Of a stretch of DNA of 64,000 nt, positions 598-61,442 are shown one piece after another. The position numbers and the translations under genes were made by a program. The stretch is from Antedon mediterranea (Eukaryota > Animalia > Echinodermata), in assembly GCF_964355755.1 (NCBI RefSeq), contig NC_092676.1:7231888-7295887 (forward strand), read 5' to 3'. Every line of letters starts with the position of its first letter. Position 1 is the first letter of the stretch. A model generated the notes under the pieces. That model saw only the letters and a list, made by a program, of their open reading frames with translations. It did no database searches and was not told where the DNA came from.

Positions 598-2397
598 CTA
601 AATGTAAATCTGACATGGTGGGACTATGAACGGAAGTGTATTTATATCTGGAAAAAGTTTTTGGGCACGTGAAATTTCCCCCCTTGATAAAAGATCCGCC
701 AAAACATTATCGACGTCGGGAATGTGCGTTGCACGGAAGTGGATATTATGGCGGAGGCAAATTAATACTAAACGTCGTAGAAGTCGCAAAAGCAAGGTAT
801 CTTTAGCAGATTTCTTGTTGATAACAGCCACAACCGCTGAATTATCACAGCGAAATAAAATTCGGTGGTTTGCCAGTTCCGAGCCCCAAACTTCCATTGC
901 TATGACTATGGGAAATAATTCAAGCACCGCGATTGACAGACCATTAAACGTACTACTCCATTTAATAAAGAACCACTTATTGTGGAAAACAGCTGCGCAT
1001 CCGATGGATGCCGCTGCATCGGTATATAGTCGTAGCGTAGTAGAATTAAACCAGTTATGTGGAAGAATTAGGGCTTTCCCGTTGAAGGATTCGAGAAAAC
1101 CTAGCCACATATGTAAATCGTCTTTTACCTCGCGCGACAGGCGAATTAAATGATTTGGATGTTTCGCTAAGGATAGGAGATTTATAAGACGGCGTAAAAA
1201 GGCTCTACCTGGTAGCACCACGCTACAGGCGTAATTCAGCAGGCCGACCATCGACTGCATGTCGCGCAGCGTAACTTTCTTCCTGGCTAAAAATTGGTTA
1301 ATTTTAGTGATTGTCTTCGTAATTTTTGACATAGGTAAACGACATTCCATGGAAACAGAATCCACCTCTATGCCGTATATCACAATGACTGTAGTTGGAA
1401 AAACGGTCTTCGAATCTTTAATGGGTACCCCAAGTGTGTTACAAAGGGAGATGAAATTAGTAAGTGCATTTTGACAAAGATTTGAATGTTTAGGACCGAC
1501 AAAGAAAAAATCGTCCAGGATATGAGATATATCCGGGATATTAAATTTTGTACGCATTATCCAAACTAATGCTGTACTGAACGATTCAAAAATGCTACAT
1601 GAACGACTGGCCCCCATCGGAAGACAGCGATCGTAGTAGTATTTATTATTCCACAAGAAACCCAAAAGGTGATAATCGCAAGGGTGGATTGGAATGATAC
1701 GAAACGCATCCTCGATGTCGGTTTTTGCCATTAAAGAACCGGGCCCGTTTTTTAACACCAAGTTAATTACGACATCAATGGTGTCGTAACTAACTTGGGA
1801 CGCATCGTGCGGAATTCCAGAATTGACCGAGGCCCCGCGCGGGTACGATAAGTCCTGGATAATCCGGAACTTACCCGATTCAGCTTTTGGTACAACCCCT
1901 AAGGGCGAACTAACAAAATTGTTGAGCGGAGGTACCGAGAATGGACCGGCTAACCTACCGAGGTTCAAACCTTTTGTTATAAATTCTTCTATTTGTTCAG
2001 GAAGTTGTATAGCACTCAGGTGTTTACGTGCAACCCCTGGGGTAGGAGGATTTGCGCAAAGAAGGCGAAAACCAAATTCGAATCCATTAACTATTTCCCG
2101 ATAAAGCTCACGCTCGTAACCCACTAAAAGCCGTTTCAATTCATTTACCATTACCGGAGTTGGAAGTCGTTCTCGCTTGGAAATTATTTCGGCGCCCGGA
2201 TTGGCCGCTGTCTCCCGGACTTTTCTTAAGGCATTGTGTCCGAGGATGTGGGTATCGGCAAATGGAACATATGTGGGCGTAAATACAGTTTTGGGCTTGA
2301 CATGGTTGTCCGGCGTTAAATGCGTAGCATACCCGTTGCCGACGAAAATTATGTTGACCTGGGAAACGAGAGTTACCTTTGGAGTTAACATTTCCAA
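598..2397 (-). CDS. DIRS/Ngaro-type reverse transcriptase-RNase H (true start uncertain)
   Basis: RT motifs SPLGVVPK, FRIIQDLS, KTDIEDAFR, LPMG, HILDDF, GIEVDS; DIRS-type RNase H motifs LYTDAA, IAVLELFPI, FRCDN, NVLADLLSR. Confidence 0.93.
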   Translation of the reverse strand: MEMLTPKVTLVSQVNIIFVGNGYATHLTPDNHVKPKTVFTPTYVPFADTHILGHNALRKVRETAANPGAEIISKRERLPTPVMVNELKRLLVGYERELYREIVNGFEFGFRLLCANPPTPGVARKHLSAIQLPEQIEEFITKGLNLGRLAGPFSVPPLNNFVSSPLGVVPKAESGKFRIIQDLSYPRGASVNSGIPHDASQVSYDTIDVVINLVLKNGPGSLMAKTDIEDAFRIIPIHPCDYHLLGFLWNNKYYYDRCLPMGASRSCSIFESFSTALVWIMRTKFNIPDISHILDDFFFVGPKHSNLCQNALTNFISLCNTLGVPIKDSKTVFPTTVIVIYGIEVDSVSMECRLPMSKITKTITKINQFLARKKVTLRDMQSMVGLLNYACSVVLPGRAFLRRLINLLSLAKHPNHLIRLSREVKDDLHMWLGFLESFNGKALILPHNWFNSTTLRLYTDAAASIGCAAVFHNKWFFIKWSSTFNGLSIAVLELFPIVIAMEVWGSELANHRILFRCDNSAVVAVINKKSAKDTLLLRLLRRLVLICLRHNIHFRATHIPDVDNVLADLLSRGEISRAQKLFPDINTLPFIVPPCQIYI

Positions 2398-3122
2398 ATG
2401 ACGCTAGTTTTAACATAAGTTCGGGATGGAGGATTTCCCACTTCAAACGAGCACCTTGTCGTGCTCTTCGGAAGCCTTCATCATACGATCGCCAGTTGAC
2501 ATTCCCTAAGGCATGGAGCTCGAGAATATTACTGGCATATTTTATCAAAGCCGAGCACTCGCTCGGTCGGTGATTTTTTGATAAAAATAGACATGTACAC
2601 CATAAACGCACGCATCCATTCTGTACTAGATAAAACTTTCTTTTTGTTATTGTCATTGTCTAACTTAAGATGTTTGTCGACCACCACAAAGGAGAAGCCA
2701 GACGATTCTATCTCGTTGTTGAGTAGTACCCTGAAGTCAATGTATGTGTCAGTCCAAATCTTATTTTTTACGGCTGCCGTAACATTATTGCCCAATTCTA
2801 TTGAGTCGGACATTGACAAAACGCTTAGTGCCGCTACCTCACCATCTGAAACTTGATCAACAATACTAGTTGTGGGGATCAGTGGATTGTCAGGTTCATG
2901 TGATACCGTAGGTTCATGTGGAACTGTGGTCGTGTTAGGTACATTAGATGACTGATGCTCTGGCAGTTGGTGGTTGGTGGCTTCTGTTTGCATCACCTTT
3001 GCCACCTCGGCAGCCAATTTGGTGTAGTCGATTTGAAGCGAACTTGCATTACGAGCTGTTGCAGATTTCTTGGTTGCTGCCGCAGCCTTAGATGCTGAAC
3101 GGCTAGGTTTGGCTTTAGGCAT
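2141..3122 (-). pseudogene. gag-like ORF1 of the DIRS/Ngaro element, frameshifted
   Basis: ORFs 2529-3122 and 2141-2656 join if a 4-bp CGAG duplication near 2557-2564 is removed (KKSPTE|CSALIKY). WRSYDEGFRR motif and CYAFN..C..C..H..C..C..H finger are typical of DIRS/Ngaro ORF1. Confidence 0.8.
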
Positions 3123-3204
3123 TATATCTAAAAAGGTATGTAAAACAACATAAATTCATGTTATTAGTGTGACGACGCCATCAACCGATACACAGCTGAT
3201 AGAA

Positions 3205-6898: not shown

Positions 6899-7814
6899 CA
6901 CAAATTTGCTGGCCTATTATTTAAGGTACCTTGCGTGATAAGTTCGATATGCATGATTTAAGATTCAGTGTATAGGAATTGAATACCCTAATATTTGGCT
7001 GATCGGATGCTATGCTAAAACTGTCAATTACAGCATATAAGTCAACAATTAGATAATGTTTTAGAGGAAGTATTGTACTAGCTTAATCATAACTATGAAT
7101 AGTTTTCAGTTTACAAAAAAACAAACAAAACTAAAAGAATCATCTTTTACAATATATCCGTACTCAGACGAAATGTGTCCTTGGCTTACGGGTAGAGGCT
7201 AGTGTTAGTGTTGTTTAGTTTCAAATCATGGTGCAGTAACATTCATTATTGAAGTATATTTCCATTATGCTAAACATTGATAATTTGTACAAATTATCTA
7301 TGGATCGAAATCGGTCCATATTATTTTTAAATGTTTTCAGAAAGAAACTGTCCAAATATAGAACCCGGTCAGTACACTGATTGTGTAATAAAATAGGTCC
7401 TCAGTTATTAGTCAATGGTTGTGTATTTTGCGCCATCGTAAACCAGCATATAATAAAAATCGGTCTTAAAGTCGTAATAAAAGGAACACGTTTTCGTTCG
7501 TTAAAGAGATATTAGGAATTGCGTTGATTTTAAAGTTTTTGTAGATTTTTAGGGTTTTGAGTTCGTTTTTACGATTTGCTGCTCTACGCGTTTTGAATAA
7601 TTTTTCTTCAACAGTATTTTACAAATTGCGTATTTTTTGTTTACTTTAAGATTTGCGACTCTACAGAAGCTCAGACACAATGGTGTTTGCCGCATTTGTT
7701 AAATTCTCTTTTCAATTTCTTCTACATCCACGACACAAAATAGTATTGATGTTGACCACTTTAGCATTACATTTCTAAACATTTGTTTTTGCAGAGCAGC
7801 AAGCACTTTGAACA

Positions 7815-10800
7815 ATGTCAGACATTGAAATTAAGTTTAGAAAATTGAAAGCTGGGCTCAGTAAGCACTATGAAGCTGAAGACTACAAGTTGCTGAAATT
7901 TTGCTTATTTGATATTTTACCACTAGAAAACCTTACAGATCAAACATCCATTGGACATGATTTATTCAATACACTTGATAGTCGTGGTGTTATCTCACAT
8001 AATGATGTCAAACTTTTGTTGGAGATAACAGCATTAACAGGTCCGAAAAAAGCTGAACACCTTGTAACTCAGTATATGAAAGACCACAATATTACAAATA
8101 CTGAAGAAAATAAATTGTCGTCAGACCGAAAACAACTCTTTAATGCTGTTAGACAATCTGAATCTCCTGCTGCACTACAGAGAGTTACTGCAAATTATCA
8201 ACTTAAAAAGTTTAAGTATACACGTATCTGGGATGTAATATTTCATTTGGAGAAGGAAAGAGTTTTACCAGACCAGTTAAATGAGTTTACAAGTCTGCTT
8301 GGAAAACGAGCACAGGAAGAGCTAGGCCTACTGAGTAAATCTACAGGTAAAGAAAATATTTCTTTGATCCTTGATTTTATTATTTATTTTAATGTAGTAA
8401 TAAACATTGTTAGTTGGGCTGAAATACAATTTAGGCCTACTCATGTAAACCTATGAATTAACATATCAACAGGTTTAATATAAACATAAACGTTATGCTT
8501 CTTTTATTTATTCAATAATTACAATTTAAACACAAAATTAAATCTATTCTAATCATTTTATCGTTATTAAGAAGATAGTGATTGTCTAATGATCTTCGAT
8601 ATGTTCTTTGAATTGGCTAAGTGATCTTTGCGAAAAAATTTTATTTGTCCGTTGTTTTTCCCTTAGTCAAAACTACAAAATAACATAATTAAAGTATGAT
8701 TTAATTAATCTTCACTGTTCATGTTTTTGGCGAACAATACATTTTTAATTTAAAGTAATACCTATTTTTTAATTTGATTTCAAATAATATTAAATGCTAT
8801 GCCTTGAATCAATTAAAATATATTTTAATAAACCCATTTATTGACTTTCAACTAAAACGGGTTTGACTAATTTAGGCTACTATCAAAATAAAATATTCAA
8901 TTTAACATTTTAAACATTTATTTTAATTATTCTGATTTCTAGATGGTACTGAGGATCACGAAGAAGACGCAGATGGGCCATCGACCTCCAAAAGAGTATT
9001 TCACAGAAACGGTAATTAATGAAAGGAATAAAATGCTTACAATTCATTTTGCTTTTAGAGTCAATTATGCTATTAAAGAATCCAAACCAAACTCATAAGT
9101 ACAGCACAGCATTTCTGTTCGAATATTATTATATTTAATTATTATGTTGACATTTTAGTGCCTAGTTGTATGTGTGTGTTATTGTAAAATTTATTTTATC
9201 GAAAAATTAAAACCGCTTCAAAATCGATATCATATATATTTACATGAAACTACATGTAATACACATAACAGTGATATTATTCACCCACTAACGAGTTTTA
9301 CAATGTCAAACCTTTTAATTCCGTACTTACATTAATATAGATAGACCAACTTATACATATATTTGTTTAACATTTTAGATTCCTATTCAAAGTGTTTTCC
9401 CAGTTGTAGCAGTAAACCAAAATGGAAAAGAGAAAGATTTAAAGGTATATAATAACAAAAAAATAATAATAATAATGTTTAAACTTCAATGTTATGAATA
9501 TATTAATACGTTGAAATTATGACTAACAATGCGCTATCAGAGTGGATTGAGACATTTTCACATGCGTGTTAACTAAAGATGTAATGAAATAAAAAAAAAC
9601 AACAACAAAAGAAACAATAAGGCAGTTTGTTGTTATCTACTGTGCGATAATGACCAATTATCTTCAATAAAAGTATTATGTACTAAATACCTATCGGTCG
9701 AAAGTCAGCAAAATAGACGCATTAACTAAGTAATAATACATTTAAACTCATGCAAAAAGTTTTTATATTTTTCGAATTGGCGCATTGTAAATGTTATTAC
9801 TCCTCAATTTATAGACTGTGTTGTACAGTAGTTTTGTAATAACATTAGTTTTATTTAAACTTAAAGATTCCAGGTTGTGCAGTGAACCAAAACAGAAGAG
9901 GAGAAAACTTACTGAAGGTAAAAAATCATATGTCAATAAACTAGAAACTTTGCCGCATACTTATAACTATTCTGCAATCTTCTAACAGAAAAGCATTACA
10001 TCAACATTAGATTACTAATCTATCGACTTAAATCATTACGGTAACCTTTTAATTGATAGAATCAAAAGCGTTATGTTATGGGAATGCTTATTTATTTCTG
10101 TTTTCCAAATCCCATCTCAATCCCATCCTACCTTATTGATGTTATTTATTATTTATTGATTAACTTGAATAATATAAAATGTAAAAATCTGGTAATATGT
10201 GTTTTAATAATTAGTATTGAAAACCATATATATGCAAAATGAGAATATGCAACAAATGAAAATGTCTTTTGTTTTTATATTGTATATATCTATAGAACAA
10301 ATAATAAAACAGTACCTGCTTGAAAGACAAACAGAAATGTGCAAGATTGACAACGAGAAATTTACACCATCAATAATGAATAGCAGAGACACTGTCGACA
10401 TCAAAATCTTCACTGAATTGGACCTCCTCAAAGAAAATAATAAGACGAGAGACAGCCACACAACGACGTTACCAGCATTATTAACCACGATTGAGTCCAC
10501 GCGTGGATGTAAAGTTCTTATAGATGGCGAGGCTGGCATTGGAAAAACAACTCTACTTAGGTACATAGCATACAGAACAACTGATAAGAAACCAATAGCA
10601 TTTAAAGGTAAAATTGTATTTTTTTTTAATGTAAGGGATCTAGAGGAAGGCAACACGATTTTTGATCTGATTGAAAAACAACTTGATATGAAAGATTTTA
10701 ACATGGAAACCGATCTTCAACTAGATTCATCCTCAATTAAAAAATTCATAAATAGACATGCCCATAAAACTGTGTTCTTATTAGATGGTTTAGACGAATT

Positions 10801-13800
10801 ACGTTGTAAGAAAGAAAACTTGTTGAATCTATTTAGGAATAAAACGTTAGGAAAAAGTGTTGTGCTACTTACATCGCGATTAGAAAATATAGATGAATTT
10901 ATCAGAGAATGTGATGTACATGTAAGAGTGAAAGGATTTAACCATTATAGCATTGGGGAATATATTAAGAACCATTTTGAGTCTTTTGAAAAACCTGAAT
11001 TGGGTAATGTTCTTACGCAGAAATTAGAGGTTGACAAGGATATTCCTAAAAATAAGCGTAAATATCTCGAAGCATATGAATTGTGCAAAACTCCTTTGTT
11101 ACTTCTCCTAATTTGTATTATTTGGGAAGACAAACAACTTCTTCCTTCTAATAATGCTGACCTTTTCAAAGAAATTTTGTGCTGCAATGTGAATCATTAC
11201 ATTGCAAAATATGAAAACCAAGAAAGCGTTTTGAAATTTGAAAATATTCCAGAAAAATATGCAAATACTATGATTTTTCTTGGTAAGTGTATGTATGATG
11301 CCTTAAAAAAAAATCAACTTTCTATTAAAAAGGGGGATTTGAAAGCTAATAAAAATAAGGACATGGTTAAGATGGCCCTTAACCTAGGATTTATTTATGA
11401 AGAAGCATCGATGTCTCGAGGCAAAAGTGAAGTGTTCTTTTCTGCTAGGCATAAATTAATACTAGAATCACTAGTAGGGTTTTATTTATACAAACTCTGT
11501 AAAAATGAAGGTATGACGAATGAGTGCGCAGCATATGTAAGACAATATGAAACTGAGTGGAATGTAGTAACAAAGTGTCCATATTTAACAATGGCAAATA
11601 GCTTTGCAGTTGGATTTCTTGGTACAAATGCAGGTAAATTCTTAAAGCATTGGGTTACGCATGATGTATCAACTTATCGTCCTTTGATACACACTTACTT
11701 AAATCATGTAACAGATGAACATCATGATTATGTGGGCAACGACCTTACAGATCACATGGACAATATGCAAATAAAACATACGGCCTTATCAAACTCATTA
11801 AATATGTTTCTTGCGCACTTCAATCAAAATTTACCGGGAGGTGAGCATTTTATACATCGTATATGGCAACTCGGTAGAATGAATCTTAATGAGCTTAATT
11901 TAAAGCAATTCTGTAATACATTATCAATTGATAGCAGAGGAAAAATTCTTGCACATATAACATATTTCGTTAAACCTACACTTGACGTACGTAATTACAA
12001 TCTATCAGGTGATGTAATGAATGACATGATTAGAGAGTGGTCTGAAATGGGTGGTGGGTTGATAATAAACCGCCTCAATATCAGCAATAATAATCTCCGG
12101 AGCATCAATCCCGAATTACTGCATCATTTAATGAGGTTGTCTTCTTTTTATATTTCATTTGAGATGATGTATTGCAATCTATCAGGTAAAGTATTGAATG
12201 ATATCATTAAGTGTAGTGAGGGAGATACGCCAACATTGTTAATGTTCAACATGGCTAGAAACAATCTAAGCGACATTGATGGTACACTAGTTGGTACTTT
12301 CTTGAGTAAGATTCCTACATTACTTAGACTTGACATGCATGATTGCAAACTAACGGGTGAAGTAATGAATAATATGATAAACGTGTATTCAGGTAGTAAT
12401 TTAAAATTACAAGAGCTTTGTGTTCCTGAAAATGACCTCAGTGACATTGATGGTACTCTTCTGGGCACTTTATTGTGTAATACTCATAAGCTGCTTAAAC
12501 TTGACATACATGACTGTAAACTATCAGGTGATATACTGAATAAAATGTTTGAAAAGTATACAAGACATGAGTCAGAAATACAGGTGCTTAATATTGGAAA
12601 CAATGATATAAGTGACGTTGATGGTACTTTACTGGGTACATTCTTAAGTAAGTCTCCTAAACTAAGTATACTTGATATGCATGCATGTAAATTATCAGGT
12701 AATATAATGAATAAAATAATCGAAATTTGTGAAGCAGCTTTGTTTCAATTAAGAGAGCTTAATATTGGTAATAATGATGAAAGTAACATTATAGGAACTT
12801 CAATAGACGGATTCTGTAACTCTCCGAAATTGTGTATCGACATACATGATTCTGAACTATCAGGTAACGTAATAAATGAAGTAATCAGTGTCGAAGCAAG
12901 AAAGCAGATCATTAATGAGAATGGTAATATACCTAGAACTGTCTTGAGTAATTCTCCAAATGATTACAATCTATCGGTCATACCTAAATGTAATACTAGA
13001 AATGATTTCAGTGACATCGATGGTACTTTACTGGGTAAGTTCGTGCTTACGTCTTCTAAACTGAATAAACTTGTTATGCATGATTGCAAACTATCAGGAC
13101 GCATAATGAATGAAATGATCAAAGTGTGTGTAAATGATAAGTTAGACTTACAGGAGCTCTATATTGGGAACAATGACATTAGTGACATTAATGGTACCTT
13201 ACTCGGTACATTTCTGTGTCATTCTCCTCAGCTACGCATACTTAGCATGTATTATTGCAAAGTATCAGGAAACGTAATGAATGAAATGTTGAGAGTGTAT
13301 ACAGGAGATGAAATTCAGTTACAAGAACTTTTTTTGTTGGGTAATGATTTCAGTGACATTGATCCTACTTTACTGAGTAACTTTTTGAGTAAGTCTCATC
13401 AACTGCTTAAATTTTCAATGGATACCTGTAAACTGTCAGGTGAGAAAATGAATGCTATCATAACATTTTATGAAAAAAATATGTTTCAATTACAGCAACT
13501 TTATTTTGGGAATAACGATTTTAGTAAAATTGAAAGTACCTTACTAAGTACCTTCTTTAGTAAGTGTATTAAATTGAAAAAACTTTCCCTAAATAATTGC
13601 AAATTATCAGGTTATAAAATAAATGAAATTTTCACAGCTTATGCAGGTGATAATTTTGAATTACAAGAGCTATATATTTCGAATAATGATTTCAGTGACA
13701 TTGATGGTAATTTATTTGGTACTTTCTTATCTAAGACTCCTCAACTGCTTAAATTAAACATGCATAATTGCAAATTATCAGGTGAAAAAATGAATGAAAT

Positions 13801-16800
13801 TATCACATGTTATAATGTTAGAGATAAATTTGAACTACAAGAGTTATATATTTCGGATAATGATTTCAGTGGCATCGATGGTACTTTACTGGGTAATTTC
13901 TTGCGTAAGTCTCCTCAACTGCGTAATTTTCACATAAATGATTGTAAATTATCAGGTGAGAAAATGAATACAATTATAACAGCTTATGATGAGGGAGATC
14001 ACTTTGAACTACACGAGCTCTATATTGGGAAAAATGATTTCAGAGACATCGATGGTACTTTACTGGGTACTTACTTGCGTCAGTCTCCTCAACTGCGTAA
14101 ACTTCACATGAATAGTTGTAAATTATCAGGTGAGAAAATGAATACAATTATAACAGCTTATGATGCGGGAGATCACTTTGAAATACAAGATCTAGTTATT
14201 ATAGATAATGATTTTAGTGACATCGATGGTACTTTACTGGGTACTTTCTTGCGTAAGTCTCCTCAACTGCGTAAACTTCACATGAGTGATTGTAAACTCT
14301 CAGGTAATAAAATGAATACAATTATAACAGCTTATGATGAGGGAGATCACTTTGAACTACACGAGCTTCGTATTTATAATAATGACATCAATGACATCGA
14401 TGGTACTTTACTGGGTAATTTTTTGTGTAAGTCTCCTCTATTGCTTGAACTTGTTATGCATAATTGCAATTTATCAAGTGAGAAAATGAATACAATTATA
14501 ACAGCTTATGATGAGGGAGATCACTTTGAACTACAAGAGTTATATATTGGGAATAATGATTTCAGAGACATCGATGGTACTTTACTGGGTAATTTCTTGC
14601 GTAAGTCTACTCAACTGCGTAAACTTCAAATGAATGATTGTAAATTATCAGGTAAGAAAATAAATACAATTTTCACAGCTTATGACGAGGGAGATCACTT
14701 TAAACTAGAAGAGCTATATATTTTGAATAATGATTTCAGTGACATCGATGGTACTTTACTGGGTACTTTCTTGTGCAAGTCTCGTCAACTGCGTACACTT
14801 TACATGAGTGATTGTAAACTGTTGGGGGAGAAAATGAATACATTTATAACAGCTTATGATGCGGGAGATCACTTTGAACTACAAGAGCTATACATTTGGA
14901 ATAATGATTTCAGTGACATCGATGGTACTTTACTGGGTAATTTCTTGCGTAAGTCTCCTCAACTGCGTAATTTTCACATAAATGATTGTAAATTATCAGG
15001 TGAGAAAATGAATACAATTATAACAGCTTATGATGAGGGAGATCACTTTGAACTACACGAGCTTCGTATTTATAATAATGACATCAATGACATCGATGGT
15101 ACTTTACTGGGTAATTTTTTGTGTAAGTCTCCTCTATTGCTTCAACTTGTTATGCATAATTGCAATTTATCAAGTGAGAAAATGAATACAATTATAACAG
15201 CTTATGATGATGGAGATCACTTTGAACTACAAGAGCTATATATTTGGAATAATGATTTTAGAGACATCGATGGTACTTTACTGGGTAATTTCTTGCGTAA
15301 GTCTCCTCAACTGCGTAAACTTCACATGAATGATTGTAAACTCTCAGGTAAGAAAATGAATACAATTATAACAGCTTATGATGCGGGAGATCACTTTGAA
15401 ATACAAGATCTAGTTATTATAGATAATGATTTTAGTGACATCGATGGTACTTTACTGGGTACTTTCTTGCGTAAGTCTCCTCAACTGCGTAAACTTCAGA
15501 TGAATGATTGTAAACTCTCAGGTAATAAAATGAATACAATTATAACAGCTTATAATGCGGGAGATCACCTTGAACTTCAAGAGCTATACATTTGGAATAA
15601 TGATTTCAGTGACATCGATGGTACTTTACTGGGTAATTTCTTGCGTAAGTCTCCTCAACTGCGTAAACTTCACATGAATGATTGTAAATTATCAGGTAAG
15701 AAAATGAATAAAATTATAACAGCTTATAATGCGGGAGATCACCTTGAACTTCAAGAACTATACATTTGGAATAATGATTTCAGTGACATCGATGGTACTT
15801 TACTGGGTAATTTCTTGCGTAAGTCTCCTCAACTGCGTCAACTTCACATGAATGGTTGTAAATTATCAGGTGAGAAAATGAATACAATTATAACAGCTTA
15901 TGATGAGGGAGATCACTTTGAACTACACGAGCTTCTTATTCATAATAATGACATCAATGACATCGATGGTACTTTACTGGGTAATTTTTTGTGTAAGTCT
16001 CCTCTATTGCTTGAACTTGTTATGCATAATTGCAATTTATCAAGTGAGAAAATGAATACAATTATAACAGCTTATGATGATGGAGATCACTTTGAACTAC
16101 AAGAGCTATATATTTGGAATAATGATTTCAGAGACATCGATGGTACTTTACTGGGTAATTTCTTGCGTAAGTCTCCTCAACTGCGTAAACTTCACATGAA
16201 TGATTGTAAACTCTCAGGTAAGAAAATGAATACAATTATAACAGCTTATGATGCGGGAGATCACTTTGAAATACAAGATCTAGTTATTATAGATAATGAT
16301 TTTAGTGACATCGATGGTACTTTACTGGGTACTTTCTTGCGTAAGTCTCCTCAACTGCGTAAACTTCACATGAGTGATTGTAAACTCTCAGGTAATAAAA
16401 TGAATACAATTATAACAGCTTATGATGAGGGAGATCACTTTGAACTACACGAGCTTCGTATTTATAATAATGACATCAATGACATCGATGGTACTTTACT
16501 GGGTAATTTTTTGTGTAAGTCTCCTCTATTGCTTCAACTTGTTATGCATAATTGCAATTTATCAAGTGAGAAAATGAATACAATTATAACAGCTTATGAT
16601 GATGGAGATCACTTTGAACTACAAGAGCTATATATTTGGAATAATGATTTTAGAGACATCGATGGTACTTTACTGGGTAATTTCTTGCGTAAGTCTCCTC
16701 AACTGCGTAAACTTCACATGAATGATTGTAAATTATCAGGTAAGAAAATAAATACAATTTTCACAGCTTATGACGAGGGAGATCACTTTAAACTAGAAGA

Positions 16801-18928
16801 GCTATATATTTTGAATAATGATTTCAGTGACATCGATGGTACTTTACTGGGTACTTTCTTGTGCAAGTCTCGTCAACTGCGTAAACTTCTGATGAATGAT
16901 TGTAAACTCTCAGGTAATAAAATGAATACAATTATAACAGCTTATAATGCGGGAGATCACCTTGAACTTCAAGAGCTATACATTTGGAATAATGATTTCA
17001 GTGACATCGATGGTACTTTACTGGGTAATTTCTTGCGTAAGTCTCCTCAACTGCGTAAACTTCACATGAATGATTGTAAATTATCAGGTAAGAAAATGAA
17101 TAAAATTATAACAGCTTATGATGAGGGAGATCACCTTGAACTTCAAGCACTATACATTTGGAATAATGATTTCAGTGACATCGATGGTACTTTACTGGGT
17201 AATTTCTTGCGTAAGTCTCCTCAACTGCGTCAACTTCACATGAATGGTTGTAAATTATCAGGTGAGAAAATGAATACAATTATAACAGCTTATGATGAGG
17301 GAGATCACTTTGAACTACACGAGCTTCTTATTCATAATAATGACATCAATGACATCGATGGTACTTTACTGGGTAATTTTTTGTGTAAGTCTCCTCTATT
17401 GCTTGAACTTGTCATGCATAATTGCAATTTATCAAGTGAGAAAATGAATACAATTATAACAGCTTATGATGATGGAGATCACTTTGAACTACAAGAGCTA
17501 TATATTTGGAATAATGATTTCAGAGACATCGATGGTACTTTACTGGGTAATTTCTTGCGTAAGACTCCTCAACTGCGTAAACTTCACATGAATGATTGTA
17601 AACTCTCAGGTAAGAAAATGAATACAATTATAACAGCTTATGATGCGGGAGATCACTTTGAATTACAAGATCTAGTTATTATAGATAATGATTTTAGTGA
17701 CATCGATGGTACTTTACTGGGTACTTTCTTGCGTAAGTCTCCTCAACTGCGTAAACTTCACATGAATGATTGTAAACTCTCAGGTAATAAAATGAATACA
17801 ATTATAACAGCTTATGATGAGGGAGATCACTTTGAACTACAAGAGTTATATATTGGGAATAATGATTTCAGAGACATCGATGGTACTTTACTGGGTAATT
17901 TCTTGCGTAAGTCTACTCAACTGCGTAAACTTCAAATGAATGATTGTAAATTATCAGGTAAGAAAATGAATACAATTTTCACAGCTTATGACGAGGGAGA
18001 TCACTTTAAACTAGAAGTGCTATATATTTTGAATAATGATTTCAGTGACATCGATGGTACTTTACTGGGTACTTTCTTGTGCAAGTCTCGTCAACTGCGT
18101 ACACTTTACATGAGTGATTGTAAACTGTTGGGGGAGAAAATGAATACATTTATAACAGCTTATGATGCGGGAGATCACTTTGAACTACAAGAGCTATACA
18201 TTTGGAATAATGATTTCAGTGACATCGATGGTACTTTACTGGGTAATTTCTTGCGTAAGTCTCCTCAACTGCGTCAACTTCACATGAATGGTTGTAAATT
18301 ATCAGGTGAGAAAATGAATAAAATTATAACAGCTTATAATGCGGGAGATCACCTTGAACTTCAAGAACTATACATTTGGAATAATGATTTCAGTGACATC
18401 GATGGTACTTTACTGGGTAATTTCTTGCGTAAGTCTCCTCAACTGCGTCAACTTCACATGAATGGTTGTAAATTATCAGGTGAGAAAATGAATACAATTA
18501 TAACAGCTTATGATGCGGGAGATTACCTTGAACTTCAAGAGCTATATATTTGGAATAATGATTTCAGTGACATCGTTGGTACTTTACTGGGATCTTTCTT
18601 AAGTAAGTCTCGTAATCTACGTACTCTTGCCATGAATAATTGTAAACTATCAGGTGATGTATTGAATGAAATGATAAGAGGGTATGCAAGAGATGATTTA
18701 GAATTACAAGAGCTTCATGTTTCGAATAATGATTTCAGTGATATCGATGGTATTCTACTAGTTACCTTATTGAACAAGTCTCCTAAGCTACGTAAACTTT
18801 ATATGAATAATTGTAAACTATCACATGACGTAATGAATAATTTGAGAATGACATTGGATTCAAGAGATATTGATATTGATATTGGGAATAATGATATTGA
18901 TGAAATTATTAGGAATCTGATTTTCTAG
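7815..18928 (+). CDS. NOD-like receptor: tandem death-effector-like domains + NACHT + very long ribonuclease-inhibitor-type LRR array; exons 7815-8346, 8943-9011, (9404-9445 optional), 9867-9917, 10296-18928
   Basis: Exon 1 has two DED-like repeats (FRKLKAGLS..LKFCLFD..DLFNTLDSRGVIS; RKQLF..WDVIFHLEKE). All introns are GT-AG phase 1 and keep frame. Walker A GEAGIGKTT, Walker B VFLLDGLDE, PLLLLLICIIW, HKLILE; alternating LxxLxIxxND / LxxLxMxxC LRRs. Confidence 0.88.
13697..18742 (+). repeat. Coding tandem array of 174-bp (58-aa) double-LRR units
   Basis: Anchor GACATCGATGGTACTTTACTGGGTA recurs every 174 bp from 13871 to 18569 (28 copies; the first and last have substitutions); flanking diverged units are 171 bp. 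Confidence 0.97.
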
Positions 18929-20869
18929 TATTGCCAACGATAGCATTTTTTCCTAAAATAAATACCCAATGTTTACGTACTAGAGAAATCTTGATGAAAA
19001 TAGCTTAAAATAAGTTGGTTGGCTGCCATTTTGCTGTATTGGCTTTAATCAGTACATTGATAACTGGCGACAAACCCACGACTACTAAACACTAGCATGG
19101 CCTTCATAACATAATAAATAATGCTAAGGCTTATCAATGTTCTATTACCTCAATAGAATATTGTTAAACATTTTGATGTAAAATTATATTTAGGTAACAA
19201 AGTTAATTGGTTTATTGAACAAACACGTAAACCGACTTTCAAGTTTATTTTTCCGTATTATTTCATGAAACATGTTAAACACTTTTAATATTATATTTTA
19301 ATTAAGCTATTTTTTCAGTGAATTTTGATTAACATAACTATTGTAGTAATACTACATATTTAGATAATATACCCTTTTAGTATACAAGCAGCTAAACCGC
19401 CAAAACAGCTTTTTGAACGACTGTTAAAAGTTGGACTCGTTCAAACATTACCGAAACTCAGCATTAACAGGATAACAGGTTAAATCGTCATTAAGGAGTC
19501 CTCGTACCGTCTTGTTTTCTACAGCCTACATTTTCAGTTACAATAAATGTACTATTATGTATTTATAATTTCTAAGCAGTACTGTAGTGTAAATTCATTA
19601 AAGTTGTATTGTAATACCGTAATTTACTTTTAATGAAGTGTTACACTTTCACAGATGTGTATAAATAGTAAAGTATAGTAATGCATTTTCCTTTTTTTAT
19701 AAATATAAAAAAAATATGCTTAGATGATTGAAAGAAAATTAACATTATTACATTATTACAATCAATGATTATTATTATCAATTATATTAAATAATAATTA
19801 TTATTCCAATAATGTTGTTCTATAGTATTACATGATTATATAAGAAACTTTTTTTAATTGGCAACACCAAAGTTACTGAAATGATATACTTTGACACCAA
19901 GTGTGCCATTTCAAACAAACATTTTATTATGTGACTCCTTACGTAATAATTGTATTAGTTTGTGCACTATACTACTGTAAACACGGCCGTGTATATAGGT
20001 GGTTATTAGTACGGATGTATTAATGTATTAAAGTAATTAATATGCAATGTGTCCGTGAAAATAAGTATAAATAGTCTGTTTGAATGTAGTATCATATCAT
20101 AGGAAATTAATAATATAAGAAATGTTTTCATTAGCATAGGAAATTGTTTATAGGTAGTAAAAATTTCATGTACGATTGTGTAAAATACACCCGTGTATAT
20201 AGGTTTATAAGGGATTATCTTAATGTTTTGTAGCTTGGGTTATGTAGGTTAGCGATAACAGATACTGTAATGTTATATATTGTTTTATCATTTGAATGTT
20301 TAAGTAAGTTAGGCCTAGACACTTTTTAGATTGTAAAACTTTTTCGCGATGAAGTAGCACAACACATTTTAAGTAGTTAAATCATTAAATTAGACTTCGA
20401 TTTATGTTAGAAGGATTAGTGTTAGTTTAAGTACAATACAATGTTTGTTTGTATACTTTATTACCACTATGGTTTACTAATAAAATTAATATACATAATT
20501 GAAATGATTGGTTGTGTTGATTTAATGTGGTTTTTGAGTATGCGATTCAGAATGATGTGGCCTACGGACAAATAGAAAATATTCTTTTATTTCAATTAAT
20601 TAATCCTACGTAAAGACGGACTTACATAACATCGCTCTTATTTCATACGAAATGAGCCTACAGTACGTACAGAAAAACCAAAAAAGCACACCTCATATCA
20701 CATCATATTGGCCTATATAGAAACAATAAGAAACATCGTATTCCATTTTGGGATGGAAAGATCTGATGAGATGATGACAATGATGATGGTTTTGTATCTG
20801 TTTGTAACTGTTCGCGATGATCTAATAAATGAAACACAGAAACCAGGACAATAACGATGATATTGAAAT

Positions 20870-21715
20870 GTTAGGATGCTGTTGAATACGTCACGATGAC
20901 GACGACGATATTGATGATGAATGATTATGAACATGTTGTTGGTTATGGGAATGATGCTAAACATGAGGATTCTGTTGAATACGTCACGATGACGACGACA
21001 ATATTGATGATGAATGATGATGAACATGATGTTGGTTATGGGAATGATGACAAATATGAGGATTCTGTTGAATACGTCACGATGACGACGACAATATTGA
21101 TGATGAATGATGATGAACATGATGTTGGTTATGAGAATGATGCTAAACATGAGGATTCTGTTGAATACGTCACGATGACGACGACGATATTGATGATAGA
21201 TGATTATGAACATGTTGCTGGTTATGAGAATGATGCTAAACATGAGGATTCTGTTGAATACGTCACGATGACGACGACAATATTGATGATGAATGATGAT
21301 GAACATGATGTTGGTTATGAGAATGATGCTAAACATGAGGATTCTGTTGAATACGTCACGGTGACGACGACAATATTGATGATAGATGATTATGAACATG
21401 TTGTTGGTTATGAGAATGATGCTAAACATGAGGATTCTGTTGAATACGTCACGATTACGACGACGATATTGATGATAGATGATTATGAACAATTTGTTGG
21501 TTATGGGAATGATGACAAATATGAGGATTCTGTTGAATACATCACAATGACGATGACGATATTGATGATGGATGATGATGAACATGATGTTGGTTATGAG
21601 ATTGAGGATGATACCAAATATGAGGATTCTGTTGAATACGTCATGGTGACGACGACGATATTGATGACGAATGTTGTGATAGCGGTGATGTTGGTTATGA
21701 GAATGATGACAAATA
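20870..21715. repeat. 93-bp GAT-rich minisatellite, about 9 copies
   Basis: GAGGATTCTGTTGAATAC anchors at 20965, 21058, 21151, 21244, 21337, 21430, 21523, 21622. Confidence 0.95.
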
Positions 21716-34150: not shown

Positions 34151-34857
34151 ATACGTGGTAAAACTGTTCTGCAGTCCATTCATTTATATCTTATTTATAG
34201 TTAATGTGTTAAATAGTTTCATTCTTTACAACATAATAAAAATACAAGAGGTAGGTAAAATACGCAATTTGATTTTCTGCAGTCCGATGGATAGAGCATT
34301 TTTCAGTGTGATCAGAAATATAGTTTCATTCTTTACATTAATTCGGAAGCTCATGAGAGTTTCTCTGATTTTGTTTTTAAAATTAACTGAGTTATTAAAG
34401 TATGTATTAAAGTATATAGGCCTAATAATCTTTTTTCTAGATATCATATTTAGTTATAATACCTTATAGGCCTATACGTATATGTAGCCTACTAGAAATA
34501 ATAAGCATCTTTACTCTAGCTAGCTTGTCTCTTTCACCTGGCTGGCACGGCACCTCGCCAGTCAGAGCCAACTAAAGATGTCATTGCCTTTATTTGGGGT
34601 CGTTTTGTCCCGATTACTATTGTTATCGAAAAGGTCACTTTCTTTCCATTCACTACTAGTACAGTGACAACAATTCACTCGAGGGGTACCTTGGAACAGC
34701 CAAAAGTGACTAATCAGATGTCAGAACGTCATTTTATGACAAGACACCGGCCAACAGAATTTGAAAAGTTTGAAAATTAGCAATAAAATTTATTATAAAT
34801 CATTAAAGATATTTTGTAAAATTTAAAAATATCTTTTTATTTCAGACAAACTTAAAA

Positions 34858-36435
34858 ATGTCGAGTGCAATTGATCCAGATATACTCACACAAGTTCCAG
34901 ATGACTTGAAAAAACTTGCTAAGCTCATAACGAGAGGATTCTACACAGTTGAACATGTGCTTGTTATTGACTACTTAGTGCGCAATCAGATAATGAAAGA
35001 GGACGATATGTTAGAACTTCTAAAATTTGAGAAAAAACAATTACGACTGCTTTTGAATCAGTTAAAGAACGATAAAATTATCAAACAGACAGTTCGAGTT
35101 GAAACACAGCCAGATGGTAAAACAAACCGCCATAATTATTACTTTATCAACTATAGAGTTTTTGTGAATATTGTAAAATATAAATTGGACAAAATGCGTA
35201 TAAAAATAGAGAGTGAAGAAAGGGACTCAACGTGTAAGGCGTTGTTTTCGTGTCCTGGATGTGAAAAGGTTTACAACGACTTTGACGCTATGGATTTGCT
35301 GGACCCGGCTACGGGGGACATGAAATGTACGCACTGTGGGTCAGTTGTAAATGAAGATGAAAGTCAGGCACCAAGTTCCTCTAGATTACAGATTGCCGAC
35401 TTTGTTCGTCAGGTTGAGCCTCTGTATGAACTCTTGCAGCAAGTTGAAGATATTAAATTGGCTCCAGAAATATTGGAGCCAACTCCAGATGTTGGTTCCA
35501 TCAAATCTCGGTATCTACTTTTTATAAATTTGGTTAAAATCACAATTTTTTATAAACGAACTACAAATTCCTCCTCCACGTTATTTGCATTCCAAACTGC
35601 AAAATGGTCTCAGATCAGTCAAATTTAACTTACTGTACATCAAACAATGGATTATGTATTGTGAATCGCTTAGAAGCATTGTGCAATAAGTGCTATAAGA
35701 ACGAATATTATTGAGATATGTGCTAGCTTGTTTGTTTCCTTTTAGTAATGTCATTAGTCCAGAGTTGAAATTGGCCCATACAGTATAAACACATTCTCAT
35801 AGTATGTTCTAACTTATCAAAAATTCTTGATTTTTTCCAGGCCCCTTGGAAGTGCCAATCGGAAGTTTGGTGAATGGAGTAACTCTAGTAGTGCTGGTAT
35901 TGCCTATAACCAGAGTTTTACAATTCAGGTTGGCGAGAATGACAATAGTAAAAAAGAAGTAGCCAAACCCAAAGAGATGCCCGTTTGGTTAGCTAAGAGC
36001 ACAATAGATGGCGCTATTACAGAAGAATCCGAAATTGCCGCACCCAGTAACGAACTAAAAAGTCCAACAAGGTCTCATCGTAGCGAAGAAATTATGAAAA
36101 CTTTATTAGCGCACGAAAAGAAACGCAGCGGCGCTTTGGCAACTGCTTTCCCGACGGATAACGGTAGCGACAACGAAAGCGATAAGAGCGCATCTGAGGA
36201 TGAGTTAACAGCGGATGCAGCATTTGGTATAAAAACAGAAAAGACAGATTCTCAGACTGTGGAGATGATAAGTGATGAGGAGGAAGAAGACGACGAAGAA
36301 ATGATGGTTATGGTCAACGGTAAACCAATGCCGTTCCAAGATGTAACCGACGATATCTTGCACCAAATGACGCCCTCTGAAAAAGAGAACTATATAGAGC
36401 TTGGACGACGGGCGTATGAGGCTATGTATGAATAG
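34858..36435 (+). CDS. GTF2E1: General transcription factor IIE subunit 1 (alpha); exons 34858-35510 and 35841-36435
   Basis: VPDDLKKLAKLITRGFY..NYYFINY..VKYKLDKMR, zinc ribbon CPGC...CTHC, KEMPVWL, acidic C-terminus MTPSEKENY; phase-2 GT-AG intron. Confidence 0.95.
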
Positions 36436-46547: not shown

Positions 46548-49437
46548 TATTTTATTTTAAAGTTATATTTAATGGAAAAATATCCAGACAATCAAGTCTG
46601 CTCCCCGTCCGTGCTTAACTTACTTAATAAAATCGGGTCATCTGACGTGTACATTATAATCTAAAACGGACTTTGATTGGATATTGATGTGATACGTTAC
46701 GTAAAGTAGCCAATGATACTCGGCCTTTATAACTTCATGGCTGATAGGGAAATCCCCATTCAGAAAATAATCATCAACAAAATAAACAGCATGCATATCA
46801 ATATCAGCATACTGTTAAATACAGTGCCATACAAAATTATGAGGAAAAAACATATCACTCCACATGACCATACACATAGGCATACTAAATACTACTACAG
46901 TAGTAGTACTACTACTACTACTAGGCATATATTTGAGAAAACACAACACGATGCTCTTCATGTGTTCTTATATTTTGAAGTTTATAAAAAAATTAGGTCT
47001 GTTTATTCAGGGAGTTGTAAAATATATTTATTTTACAACTCCCTGGTTTATTTTATGCATTTTTCAAATTTACAGTACATAACTGAAATTTCTAACAATA
47101 GGTCTAGTAAATCGTTTTACTTTTATAGGCAATATTTATAAATATCATTCTATAATTTTAACACTACGTGTAATTCTTAATTCGCATCATTAATCAAAAT
47201 ATTTTTAACTTTTTGGCGATTTGGATAATAGCAGCAACAGCAGCGACACAACACAACACAGTCGCATAAATTCCAATTACTATGCTACAGTACCCGGATT
47301 GTAGATTAACGTGTGCTTAAACCCGGTCAACCGTATCTAAACAAAACCCATATGCCGCGGCAGATCTTCCATATTATTCTTCTTTTATTCTGTTTTTCAC
47401 AATTTGTATTCAAAGTACACAGGTTATTGTAGAGTTCAAACGCTGACTCTTTATTCTAGGCCCCCGTGTGGTCACAGAATACGAGTTAAGCATATCGGTG
47501 AAATTCCGAGTGCTTTCAAATTGTGTACCTTGATCTTTGTTACACCAGAGTAAACAATAATTGCAACAACGAGTTATATGTACGACGTGGTTTGACCGTA
47601 ATGTTATATAATATTCTAATAGTGGCGTAAGTGTGATTTTTCTTTCGTTTTTGTTTCGAAGTACAAGTTAGACCTGCGTTTACATGGTGTTGAACACTCT
47701 AATTCAATTAAGTTAGTGTTTTGGGAGTTAAACACCACCACGTCTGTTTCGACAGTTTGAACAACGGGTTGCTTTGTATTCATACATCATGAATAACGTG
47801 CGGCCTAGGAGGCCTACTATCTGTTCATAAATTAAACCGTCTAAACACGTAGGCTTGGCTACATCACCATAAGATGCAGAGCGCGTACAAACGACTATCT
47901 TTCATGCTGATTAATAATTAGCATAATAATACACAACGGAAGTACAGTGCAGTTATTTACAAACAAATATACATTGCTTCTGTGCTTCCTATGCATTTTT
48001 AAATTATATACAAATTGTCCATTTGTATACTTTATTGTTAATAATTTACAGTTTTTGCTTAAACAATCTATATTTTATACAGGTGACGTTATTGTGCTGT
48101 TGAAAACGGACGGAAGATAACCTGTTATATCGATTTTAAATCATCTATGAATGTTTTATAATGTAAGTATTGTATAGTTAGAATAATCAGACAAACATTT
48201 TGATCACAGCATAGAGATATTATAGTTCATAATATTATGATCACACTCAGCACGGGTTTTTTTTCCTTGGAATAATAAAGATTTCAGATCCGCCTGTATG
48301 CTATTTGACGATGACTGTTATAGTTTTGAGGAAGTTTGGTAGGCGCCTAACCTTCAATTGCTTTTGTGCCACCATAGAGATATATACTATTTCTATGGTG
48401 GCATATTCTTTCCTGTTGCCGTATGATAGCCTATTCAGTTTACAAAGTTTAGAGAATTATTATGAATAGGGGCCTATTATTCACTTAGATAAATGGATTT
48501 AGGCCTATTTTACTCCTAATCCGTTCAAGGATAAAACACACTAGGGTGTTCTTATAAGCATTTTCCAGGCGTTAATTTTTATTTTAAACATTGTATTTTA
48601 TTATATTATTATATTTATTTATTTGTCTGGTCAGATGACGCAATAAAAAAAATAAAACTGATATTGCGCGCGCATTACGTAACATCTCAGATTTCGTTTC
48701 AATTGTCTTTATTTTGAGAACGGTGTTAAATAATTCAACTTAAAAGCCTTTTCAATGCGTCAGTATTAATACGATTACCACCTGTTTGCATCTTATGTAT
48801 AGGTAATTTTCTAATCAAAAAGTATTGTTTGTTTCAGCGTCAAGAACGAGTGTATTGTATACAATAACTTGCAGAGAGAAGTAGGCTTCTGACTGAGACG
48901 TTGCGGTAAGTTGCTGGTGGTAGAGTAGCCTAATACAAATAGGCTACCTCTGGCTAACATTATTTCTTTTTGTTGAAATTAAATCATTAACTATGTGACG
49001 GTTTCATTGATCTTTAATTCCTTCTTCCTGGTAGTTTCTGATCGATTCTTTGGGCCCGTTCAAACTTAGGCCTATTTATTTATCCAAGTAATACATTTTG
49101 GTTTGTGCACAGTGATTTTTTATCGCAAGGTAGGCTTACACGTTTACTCCATGAGGTATAAACTAACTAATACCCGGGTAAATATAAGCCTGAACGGTCC
49201 CTATGACTTTTGTCTTCGCTGATATCGTTCTAGTTTCTGTTCACAGTTGCACGTTGCTACGTATTAACCATTATTCTTTATTCATTGTCGTATAACGGTT
49301 CTGTAACATGACAGCACAAATAGAATTAAGTTAACTAACTGCAAAGTAGGGCCTATATGCCGAGTTTGTATACATTCACACGATACAAATAATATCATAT
49401 ATTGTTTACATTTCAGTTGTGATACGGCTTGAGCACG

Positions 49438-50514
49438 ATGTGGACCGTCAGGTTGTTCCGTGATGACCAACTTCCGTCTGTTTTTCACGAACCTTTCATC
49501 AAAACCGGGTACCGAGCTTGTGAGACGAGTCTTTCCGAGTGTTTACGAAGTGCATTGTACGGGACCAACGAAACCTTGAATTTTTGGACGCACTTTCTGC
49601 CAGTGTTTTACTATCTATGGCGTATTTGGCGCATAGGATCCGAACATGACTTCATCAACGATCCATATATGTGGCCCTTGCTGGGCGTACTCATTTGCGT
49701 CTGTTTATATTCGTTGGCTAGTAGCGTAGCTCACCTTTTCAGCTGTCTGTCCGAACGCGCACGCCATGTTTGTTTTTTTATGGATTATTCTTCGATCGGA
49801 ATGTACAGTGTGGCTTGCTCCATTGCCTACAAATGTTACTCGTTTCCTAACAATTTGATAGATACGCCATACTTTAATTCCTACATTCAAATCAGTGTGG
49901 TAAACGCAGTTTTGATGTGCACGTGTGGTGCGTGTGCGTCCCGTTTTATGGATGAGAGTTTATTGCGTCATTTATGTCGTCTCTCGTCGTTCTCGCTCCC
50001 GTTTATAATCTGCAACGTGCCGATAGTTTACCGCGTGTTTGCCTGTCCTGGTGACGATTGCGACGGTACGTCTGTCGCTCTGCTCCGATGGCAGTATCTT
50101 GCAGCGGCCGTCACAGCCTTGATTTTTGCCACTCATTTCCCCGAGAGAATGGCGCCAGGAAGGTTTGACGTATTCTTTCACAGTCATCAGATCTTCCACG
50201 TAGCTACAACCGTATCAAGTAACTTTCACGTGGACGCAATGTTAGCCGATATGAGCCAGCGGCGCGACGTCTTGGAATCGACGGTGGGGATGCCAACCTT
50301 TTGGAATTCTATAGGTTTACTCAGTGCAGTATTCTGTATAAACGCATTGCTCGTGTTGTGTTTCTCAGTCATGATTTATAGTAGCCCAGAACCGGAGCAT
50401 TTTTACAAAATAAAGCACAGTGAAGGTACTGGAAAACGACAAATCGCTAAGAATTACCGCCATCGAGTAGAATGTCGAAACCGGGCTCAGCAAGGAAGCA
50501 ATGTTAAACGGTAA
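49438..50514 (+). CDS. PAQR5: PAQR-family membrane progestin receptor gamma-like, copy 1
   Basis: FHEPFIKTGYR, NETLNFWTH, SSVAH, ARHVCFFMDY, PERMAPGRFD, HSHQIFH; multiple hydrophobic segments. PAQR5 versus PAQR6 orthology not resolvable by eye. Confidence 0.88.
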   Translation: MWTVRLFRDDQLPSVFHEPFIKTGYRACETSLSECLRSALYGTNETLNFWTHFLPVFYYLWRIWRIGSEHDFINDPYMWPLLGVLICVCLYSLASSVAHLFSCLSERARHVCFFMDYSSIGMYSVACSIAYKCYSFPNNLIDTPYFNSYIQISVVNAVLMCTCGACASRFMDESLLRHLCRLSSFSLPFIICNVPIVYRVFACPGDDCDGTSVALLRWQYLAAAVTALIFATHFPERMAPGRFDVFFHSHQIFHVATTVSSNFHVDAMLADMSQRRDVLESTVGMPTFWNSIGLLSAVFCINALLVLCFSVMIYSSPEPEHFYKIKHSEGTGKRQIAKNYRHRVECRNRAQQGSNVKR

Positions 50515-56697: not shown

Positions 56698-56895
56698 TAA
56701 TTCGCATCTGAACTAAATGTAGGACAGCCATACTAATATGTATACGAATAGGCCTACTTTAAAACAAATTACGTCAGCACTTTCCATAATAGAAACGGCA
56801 GCTTATCTGTGGATTGTATTCGGTTTTACAAATTATTTGTCGATTGATAGATATTGTGTTTATTTTCTAGGTGTATAAACCAAAGATCAACGAAA

Positions 56896-61056: not shown

Positions 61057-61442
61057 TTAAGGCCAATTTACGCAGACGACCATCAGTAACGAAAATTAAA
61101 ATATAGAATCGAAATCTATGTTACTCCTTATGACTGGTGGAGAATTGAACGGGCAGTTTCCGCCGCTCAGGATAGACACAGATTCTACGTGAGACAAGCT
61201 GCGTGGTTTTCCGCTTACCATTACCGCTCGTCTGTGAAAATTTGCCTTAATTCGCCTCTGAAATAATGTAGGACAGTTATGTAAATAAATATGTTCTTTT
61301 TTAGATTTCAGCAGCACTTTCTCTTAGAAACAACAGTTTATCTGTGGATCGATTGTAGGCCTATTCGGTTTTACAGATTAGTGATCGATTTAGTATAGAT
61401 GTTGTTTTATTTTCTAGGTGTGTAAACCAAAGATCGACGAAA

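Follow-up and report, generated by a model that had tools for sequence, protein, structure and literature searches.

A recombining array of near-identical leucine-rich repeat units in a predicted NLR gene of a feather star

The 64,000-nucleotide stretch of Antedon mediterranea contig NC_092676.1 analysed here, called the window below, contains a gene predicted to encode a receptor with a NACHT domain and leucine-rich repeats (LRRs), that is, an NLR. Its LRR region includes a homogenised array of 27 tandem units of 174 bp, and the sequences of these units show that recombination has occurred between them. The explanation that we consider probable is inherited repeat recombination: the LRR sensor would be a coding minisatellite in which duplication of blocks and exchange of patches renew the binding strands on a uniform scaffold. 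The diversification of receptors in invertebrates, which lack antibodies, is a long-standing question, and the locus appears to provide an animal example, at nucleotide resolution, of a repeat-shuffling strategy known from fungal NLRs.

Tandem Repeats Finder reported the 174-bp array at 13001-18823. With the units cut at 13871, the start of unit 1, and unit 0 defined as 13697-13870, units 0 to 27 (13697-18568, n = 28) keep an exact 174-bp register without a single indel or stop, as had been claimed for 28 units in one exon by a first reading made from the letters alone (the sequence-only reading). That reading had the feature span 13697-18742; the start is correct, and the end lies one unit too far, since unit 28, beginning at 18569, has 57 codons and leaves the register. 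Unit 0, the first unit of 58 codons, is in register and about 20% diverged, with 33-42 of its 174 nt differing from the core units. The homogenised core consists of 27 units, with 22 distinct DNA and 21 distinct protein sequences, and this 27-unit array is real. Core units are 92.9% identical to the majority sequence in nucleotides and 86.6% in amino acids (27 x 58 residues; T-REKS itself was not used), the latter mean lying at the level of repeat identity that defines NLRs with highly conserved internal repeats (HIC). Pairwise differences average 11.5%, five pairs of units are identical (3 and 15, 6 and 25, 8 and 16, 9 and 14, 12 and 20), and the longest exact repeat within the array measures 336 bp.

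Recombination between units is visible in several ways. The pairwise homoplasy index (PHI) test gave p=0.0002 (5000 permutations), with the same result at three window sizes, and incompatibility also affects 14 of the 66 pairs formed by synonymous informative sites; the mosaic thus goes beyond both chance and a simple tree. This was the kind of test that the sequence-only reading had called for, and it agrees with its view that the units were re-assorted rather than derived along a simple duplication tree. Incompatibility climbs with distance, from 23/385 site pairs at less than 20 bp to 82/214 at 80-99 bp, and the consistency index of a single tree on the units is 0.64. Two tandem copies of an eight-unit block (1392 bp each) differ at 28 positions, 21 of them inside 158 bp; 25 of the 28 differences use bases present in other units, and the whole array has only 10 bases private to one unit. 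Within the second copy, a patch of 166 bp (16718-16883) shows 0 differences to 14630-14795 and 20 to its own twin, and is flanked by 336 bp and 229 bp with 0 differences to the twin. Such a patch with perfect flanks is the signature of gene conversion or of a double crossover, and the gene, like HIC NLRs, carries both chimeric repeats and conversion tracts. A copy model needs 14 segments and 34 mismatches to account for the 4.7-kb array.

The three chimeric units singled out by the sequence-only reading proved to be so: the front of unit 7 is that of unit 1, unit 17 lies 2 nt from unit 5 and leads into a unit-6-type start, and unit 18 lies 4 nt from unit 10 while having the front of unit 6. 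The recurrence that it saw of units 3-4 in 15-16 is also present, with 0 and 5 differences, whereas the three other recurring blocks had each been drawn one unit too long. Units 8-9 match 13-14 (2 and 0 differences), 5-6 match 24-25 (2 and 0), and 11-14 match 19-22 (3, 0, 1 and 2), and the final pairs, 10 with 15, 7 with 26, and 15 with 23, have 16, 21, and 13 differences, respectively.

Re-assortment is limited and the order of the units is strongly non-random. When reading begins at codon 32, in the order helix, A strand, helix, B strand, the units can be written as A B C D E F G D H C I J D H C D H K I J D H C E F L J M, with seven recurring cassette types (C, D, E, F, H, I, J) and three chimeras (G, K, L). 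The A strand and the next B strand form 15 different pairs vs 21.2 at random, with 0 of 20000 shuffles giving a value as low, and 19 pairs from B to A strand are found vs 21.8 (p=0.04). The combinatorial diversification proposed in the sequence-only reading is thus retained as far as recombination goes, but free shuffling is not: with about seven cassette types and so few strand pairs, the array is not freely combinatorial. Neutral simulations with uniform breakpoints reached mean incompatibilities of 0.28-0.50 vs 0.13 observed; they are equally or more scrambled, and a dedicated cassette machinery is therefore not needed. A recombination hotspot in the helix following the B strand (incompatibility 0.26 vs 0.09) was considered and is not established, as 28 of 449 comparable simulations (of 2790) matched the asymmetry, and the counts of block-to-block cycles were uninformative.

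Variation between units is concentrated where a ligand-binding surface is expected. The exposed concave face was taken as the ten positions marked x in each unit's two LxxLxLxxN/C motifs, an assignment that follows established LRR geometry, and an AlphaFold2 model puts strands at the positions of these motifs. The minimum number of amino-acid-changing changes is 31 per 24.1 sites at the exposed strand codons vs 30 per 112.1 sites elsewhere, a 4.8-fold excess (p=4e-9), and the amino-acid-changing rate at the exposed codons is 2.0 times the unit-wide synonymous rate (p=0.006). Having few hypervariable surface positions, here ten codons per unit, is another property of HIC NLRs. In the helix regions, exposed residues included, the rate is only 0.30 per site vs 1.29 at the exposed strand codons (p=9e-8). 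Synonymous diversity is itself raised five-fold around the strands: it reaches 1.34 per site there, compared with 0.25 in the helices (p=1e-4). The simplest reading of this pattern is that old, divergent strand types have been kept by selection while the helices were homogenised, and positive selection on the exposed strand positions is likely, albeit not proven; relaxed constraint combined with an uneven history may be an alternative source of the strand variation.

The array belongs to a predicted five-exon gene, with GT-AG introns all in phase 1, whose joined splice model gives an open protein of 3116 residues in which a DED-like domain and a linker precede a NACHT domain, with its Walker A and B motifs, and 38 two-LRR units (Table 1). 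Its last exon lies in a stop-free frame of 8.7 kb (10211-18928) that encloses the array. At the N-terminus, residues 8-75 match DED with E 7e-7 and 29.8 bits, below the curated Pfam cut-off of 35.9, and the first 260 residues of the joined model are 46% identical to the crinoid homologue P0001; the connection of a DED-like N-terminus to the NACHT domain is accordingly a prediction of the splice model. The second helical segment of exon 1 matched 0 Pfam families, and the second DED suspected there was not confirmed by this search. Contigs of run X5, only guessed to be RNA, show depth within the predicted introns, and the intron region 9820-10243 in run X4 has single-copy depth only. A Pfam match to LRR_4 occurs in the C-terminal repeats, and the AlphaFold2 model of ten units (pLDDT 87) forms a regular strand-helix solenoid for which ribonuclease inhibitor 1dfj has the top query-normalised TM-score among the PDB matches listed, 0.61 (0.76 by target). 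The model thus supports LRRs of the ribonuclease inhibitor (RI) type. The best 57 of 87 protein matches, together with all six from a second search, come from two feather stars, Antedon mediterranea and Anneissia japonica, and are at most 52% identical. Domain matches, fold model, and crinoid relatives together support, from sequence, the earlier assignment of the gene as an animal NLR with RI-type LRRs, more precisely one of crinoid type.

The same trait recurs in other crinoid homologues, and the locus is not singular. Units with an in-gene partner at least 85% identical number at least two in 23 of 63 homologues, at least four in 14, and at least eight in nine, and in 15 of 15 such genes, the window gene included, variation is higher at the exposed positions than at the others. 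P0088 (3951 residues, 42 such units) and P0001 (11 units) are the nearest relatives and form a clade with the window gene in a quick tree (SH-aLRT 99); both have units of 57 residues and are mosaic (PHI p=0.0003 each). For all 27 units of the window gene the closest unit lies in that same gene, the best unit from the other crinoid homologues compared being 68% identical, which implies that each gene homogenises its own unit. P0094, an LRR-only protein of A. mediterranea (51%), was rejected as a donor of shared cassettes in a search among proteins of 191-609 residues with six units. On the quick tree the repeat-array trait requires eight changes vs 13.7 for shuffled labels, and its recurrence across the family suggests repeated entry into and exit from the hypervariable state. 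Judged from these protein sequences, the trait is family-wide in crinoid NLRs, mostly with a gene-specific unit. P0060 and P0083, NACHT-LRR proteins far from the crinoid family, have near-identical repeats of their own (31 and 56 residues), so the trait is not restricted to crinoids. In a related organism B, runs X6 and X7 gave abundant contigs at 18395-18568 that are about 89% like unit 27 and do not cover the 3' untranslated region (UTR) of this gene, which suggests that organism B has a homogenised array of its own.

Contigs give hints of alleles. Those of runs X1 and X4 (sample S1) include sequences identical to the window; S1 may be the source of the window and is for this reason not independent. 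X4 has two contigs of the 3' UTR, one of depth 145 and one of depth 163; the latter has a 27-nt deletion that is also present in sample S2, and over 18907-19066 the two versions differ by about ten positions in 75 nt in addition to the deletion. The single-copy depth of the intron and the two UTR versions in X4 possibly reflect very divergent alleles of this NLR. A 933-nt X4 contig from S1 (record 5, depth 155) agrees with 18578-18903 apart from 26 differences and continues upstream into further terminal-type units, which are spaced by 507 and 171 nt, compared with 519 and 174 nt in the window; it is likely to be a second allele whose array ends differently. A 432-nt X5 contig (record 13) matches 18578-18771 with seven differences, and its upstream 238 nt were not placed on unit 27. 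These contigs hint at alleles that differ in their array end, and we rate the chance that each animal carries an individual-specific germline order of units as slightly better than even. Summed X4 contig depth at the unit positions amounts to about 54 to more than 120 times that of a single copy, and some of the bases counted in it do not occur in the window (18428 C>A), indicating that paralogues and overlapping contigs contribute, and depth was therefore not used as copy number.

The preferred explanation, inherited recombination between the repeats, would have misaligned, in-register pairing of units as its engine. Unequal crossing-over and gene conversion in the germline would lead to gains and losses of blocks and to converted patches, and alleles would come to differ in unit number and order, while selection would keep the divergent strand types, as the raised synonymous diversity around the strands suggests. 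A ligand bound on the concave face would then switch the NACHT domain, and the DED-like N-terminus would relay the signal, leading to cell death or immune activation. A number of observations count against this explanation. Measured against the local synonymous baseline, the exposed codons give 1.29 vs 1.34 (p=0.61), that is, a ratio of amino-acid-changing to synonymous rates (dN/dS) of about 1, and it is because of this value that positive selection is not proven. At the protein level, PHI was significant in only five of ten genes tested, with five more having too few units. Record 5 could be a close paralogue and not an allele; no read or contig in the runs checked extends across the whole array or over either border, and the aligned X4 contigs, in which holes prove nothing, do not include 18600-18870 in the form that the window has. 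Finally, a germline origin of the array changes is most likely, but it is assumed by parsimony and not observed.

Passive turnover of the repeats, in which chimeras arise by slippage or crossover, strands vary through lack of constraint, and array length has no role in sensing, is a rather improbable alternative, although the one that fares best. It would account for the local dN/dS of about 1 and for a solenoid of 38 units, or about 76 LRRs, far longer than solved RI-type proteins, and the neutral simulations show that mosaicism of this degree arises without special machinery. Nevertheless, helix-region codons, including those of exposed residues, are four times less variable, the five-fold synonymous rise around the strands is not predicted by relaxed constraint alone, the bias toward exposed positions holds in every one of the 15 genes, and the frame is intact across 8.6 kb.

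Somatic diversification would have immune cells rearrange the array, so that receptors differ between the cells of one animal. The model for this, raised in the sequence-only reading, is the variable lymphocyte receptor (VLR) of lampreys, which consists of LRR cassettes with a variable concave face and whose incomplete germline genes are assembled somatically from flanking cassettes. The crinoid gene is unlike these in being complete and open as it stands, and blastn found no orphan cassette in the rest of the 64-kb window, so the comparison with VLR assembly was not upheld. The array is prone to recombination, and HIC repeats of Podospora do change by somatic mutation, according to the accessible parts of PMC13449251 and PMC2873952; yet neither the V(D)J heptamer nor the nonamer has an exact match in 7001-21000, and every difference fits inherited duplication and conversion. 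Contig data drop rare variants, which limits the view of somatic variation. We regard this explanation as very improbable, and only marginally less so a combined version, in which somatic rearrangement comes atop germline turnover in a clade of giant single-exon crinoid NLRs and arrays differ per immune-cell clone. If true, the latter would mean an echinoderm receptor repertoire made by repeat recombination.

An assembly artefact, with reads of paralogues or of both alleles stitched into a false mosaic or an inflated array, is as improbable as somatic diversification by itself: it would fit the missing spanning records and unbridged borders, the richness of the source organism in similar LRR units seen in the contig depth, and the different sequence that precedes the terminal units in one X4 and one X5 contig, whereas false expansions copy long stretches exactly and here the longest exact repeat is 336 bp, the sister gene, which has 42 such units and block repeats of a similar kind, comes from the Antedon mediterranea assembly, counted as independent, and a unit junction of the window (14019 back to 13857, RIYN strand) recurs in contigs of two samples.

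By analogy, the inherited repeat recombination proposed here would be the het-d/het-e strategy built from RI-type LRRs in an animal, and the comparison with these Podospora genes, made in the sequence-only reading, is a close fit. In the accessible text of PMC2873952, the HNWD/HIC genes het-d and het-e as well as het-r have chimeric repeats, a conversion tract of 88 bp, and variable codons that form two clusters in each unit. Shared with Podospora HIC NLRs (PMC2873952, PMC13449251, and PMC4986451, as far as available) are the NACHT receptor with near-identical C-terminal repeats, a small number of hypervariable codons at the surface, grouped into two clusters within each unit, chimeric units formed by deletion or unequal crossover, short conversion tracts, and homogenisation per gene. 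The crinoid genes differ in having RI-type LRR pairs in place of WD40, ANK, or TPR repeats, a DED-like N-terminus, an animal host, and 27-42 units, and while function, allele series, and exchange between genes are known in Podospora, the crinoid gene is known from sequence alone. The HET domain and WD40 repeats of the HNWD family proper are replaced by DED-like and LRR domains.

Other systems share parts of this arrangement, each described here from the available passages. Tomato Hcr2 genes (Cf-2/Cf-5; PMC7468133) have tandem LRR repeats at the nucleotide level whose number and order are altered by intragenic recombination, but encode extracellular plant receptor-like proteins with 24-residue LRRs and no NACHT domain. 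Zebrafish NLR-B30.2 genes (PMC4852459) form an expanded animal NACHT-LRR family with gene conversion, the LRR being repeated more than 20 times in groups 2b and 4; there, the LRRs lie in separate exons and are described as not particularly variable, with selection acting on B30.2, whereas the crinoid LRRs lie in one exon and are the variable part. Repeat shuffling has also been proposed to diversify an immune sensor in the NB-ARC-TPR/LRR genes of brown algae (summarised in PMC13449251), which have one repeat per exon and spare repeats in introns, unlike the crinoid array, which lacks introns and is not accompanied by spare cassettes in the window.

The sequence-only reading had regarded such a system as uncharacterised for a metazoan NLR. 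This holds in part: a SMART survey that included LRRs reports HIC NLRs in animals (PMC13449251, 2026), and section 12 and the available passages of that paper contain no sequence-level analysis of them. We found no description of such NLR repeat arrays in crinoids in a literature search whose coverage excludes most subscription journals, and the accessible part of a coral paper (PMC10236652) contains nothing on LRR shuffling. Lying within a single exon, the array can be amplified and typed by long reads, making mutation rate, allele diversity, and the somatic question testable.

Table 1 Predicted features of the NLR gene in the window
Feature	Position	Strand	Basis or remark
Coding exon 1 (predicted): ATG, DED-like domain, second helical segment	7815..8346	+	GT donor
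Linker exon 2 (predicted), 69 nt, phase 1-1	8943..9011	+	AG/GT ends, open frame in joined model
Linker exon 3 (predicted), 66 nt	9379..9444	+	Joined model
Linker exon 4 (predicted), 51 nt	9867..9917	+	Joined model
Giant last coding exon: NACHT and all LRRs to stop codon	10296..18928	+	Stop-free frame 10211-18928
NACHT domain	10514..10981	+	Pfam PF05729, E 2.7e-20; Walker A GEAGIGKT and Walker B LLDGLDE in translation
Diverged LRR pairs of RI type, most of them 57 codons long (approximate start)	11960..13870	+	70-83% nucleotide identity to unit 11; last is unit 0
Homogenised array, 27 x 174 bp	13871..18568	+	Each unit two LRRs (30 + 28 residues)
Tandem duplication of eight-unit block	15005..17788	+	Copies 15005-16396 and 16397-17788
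Conversion-like patch in second copy	16718..16883	+	Identical to 14630-14795; direction inferred
Two diverged terminal units (28, 29) and stop	18569..18928	+	Unit alignment

Other elements lie around the NLR gene. About 4.7 kb upstream, overlapping frames on the reverse strand (598-3155) have Pfam matches of reverse transcriptase and RNase-H-like type, next to a CCCH-like frame, and belong to what we take to be an element resembling DIRS/Ngaro-type retrotransposons. At 20873-21708, 1.9 kb downstream of the NLR stop codon, nine copies of a 93-bp unit are open in one frame per strand; this repeat had no credible Pfam match and may be a non-coding minisatellite that is open by chance. Further downstream on the forward strand are a TFIIE alpha subunit gene in two frames (34807-36435) and three tandem single-frame genes of HlyIII/PAQR type (49423-50514, 56851-58038, and 61359-62588), the first two with a HlyIII Pfam match and the third near-identical to the second by eye.

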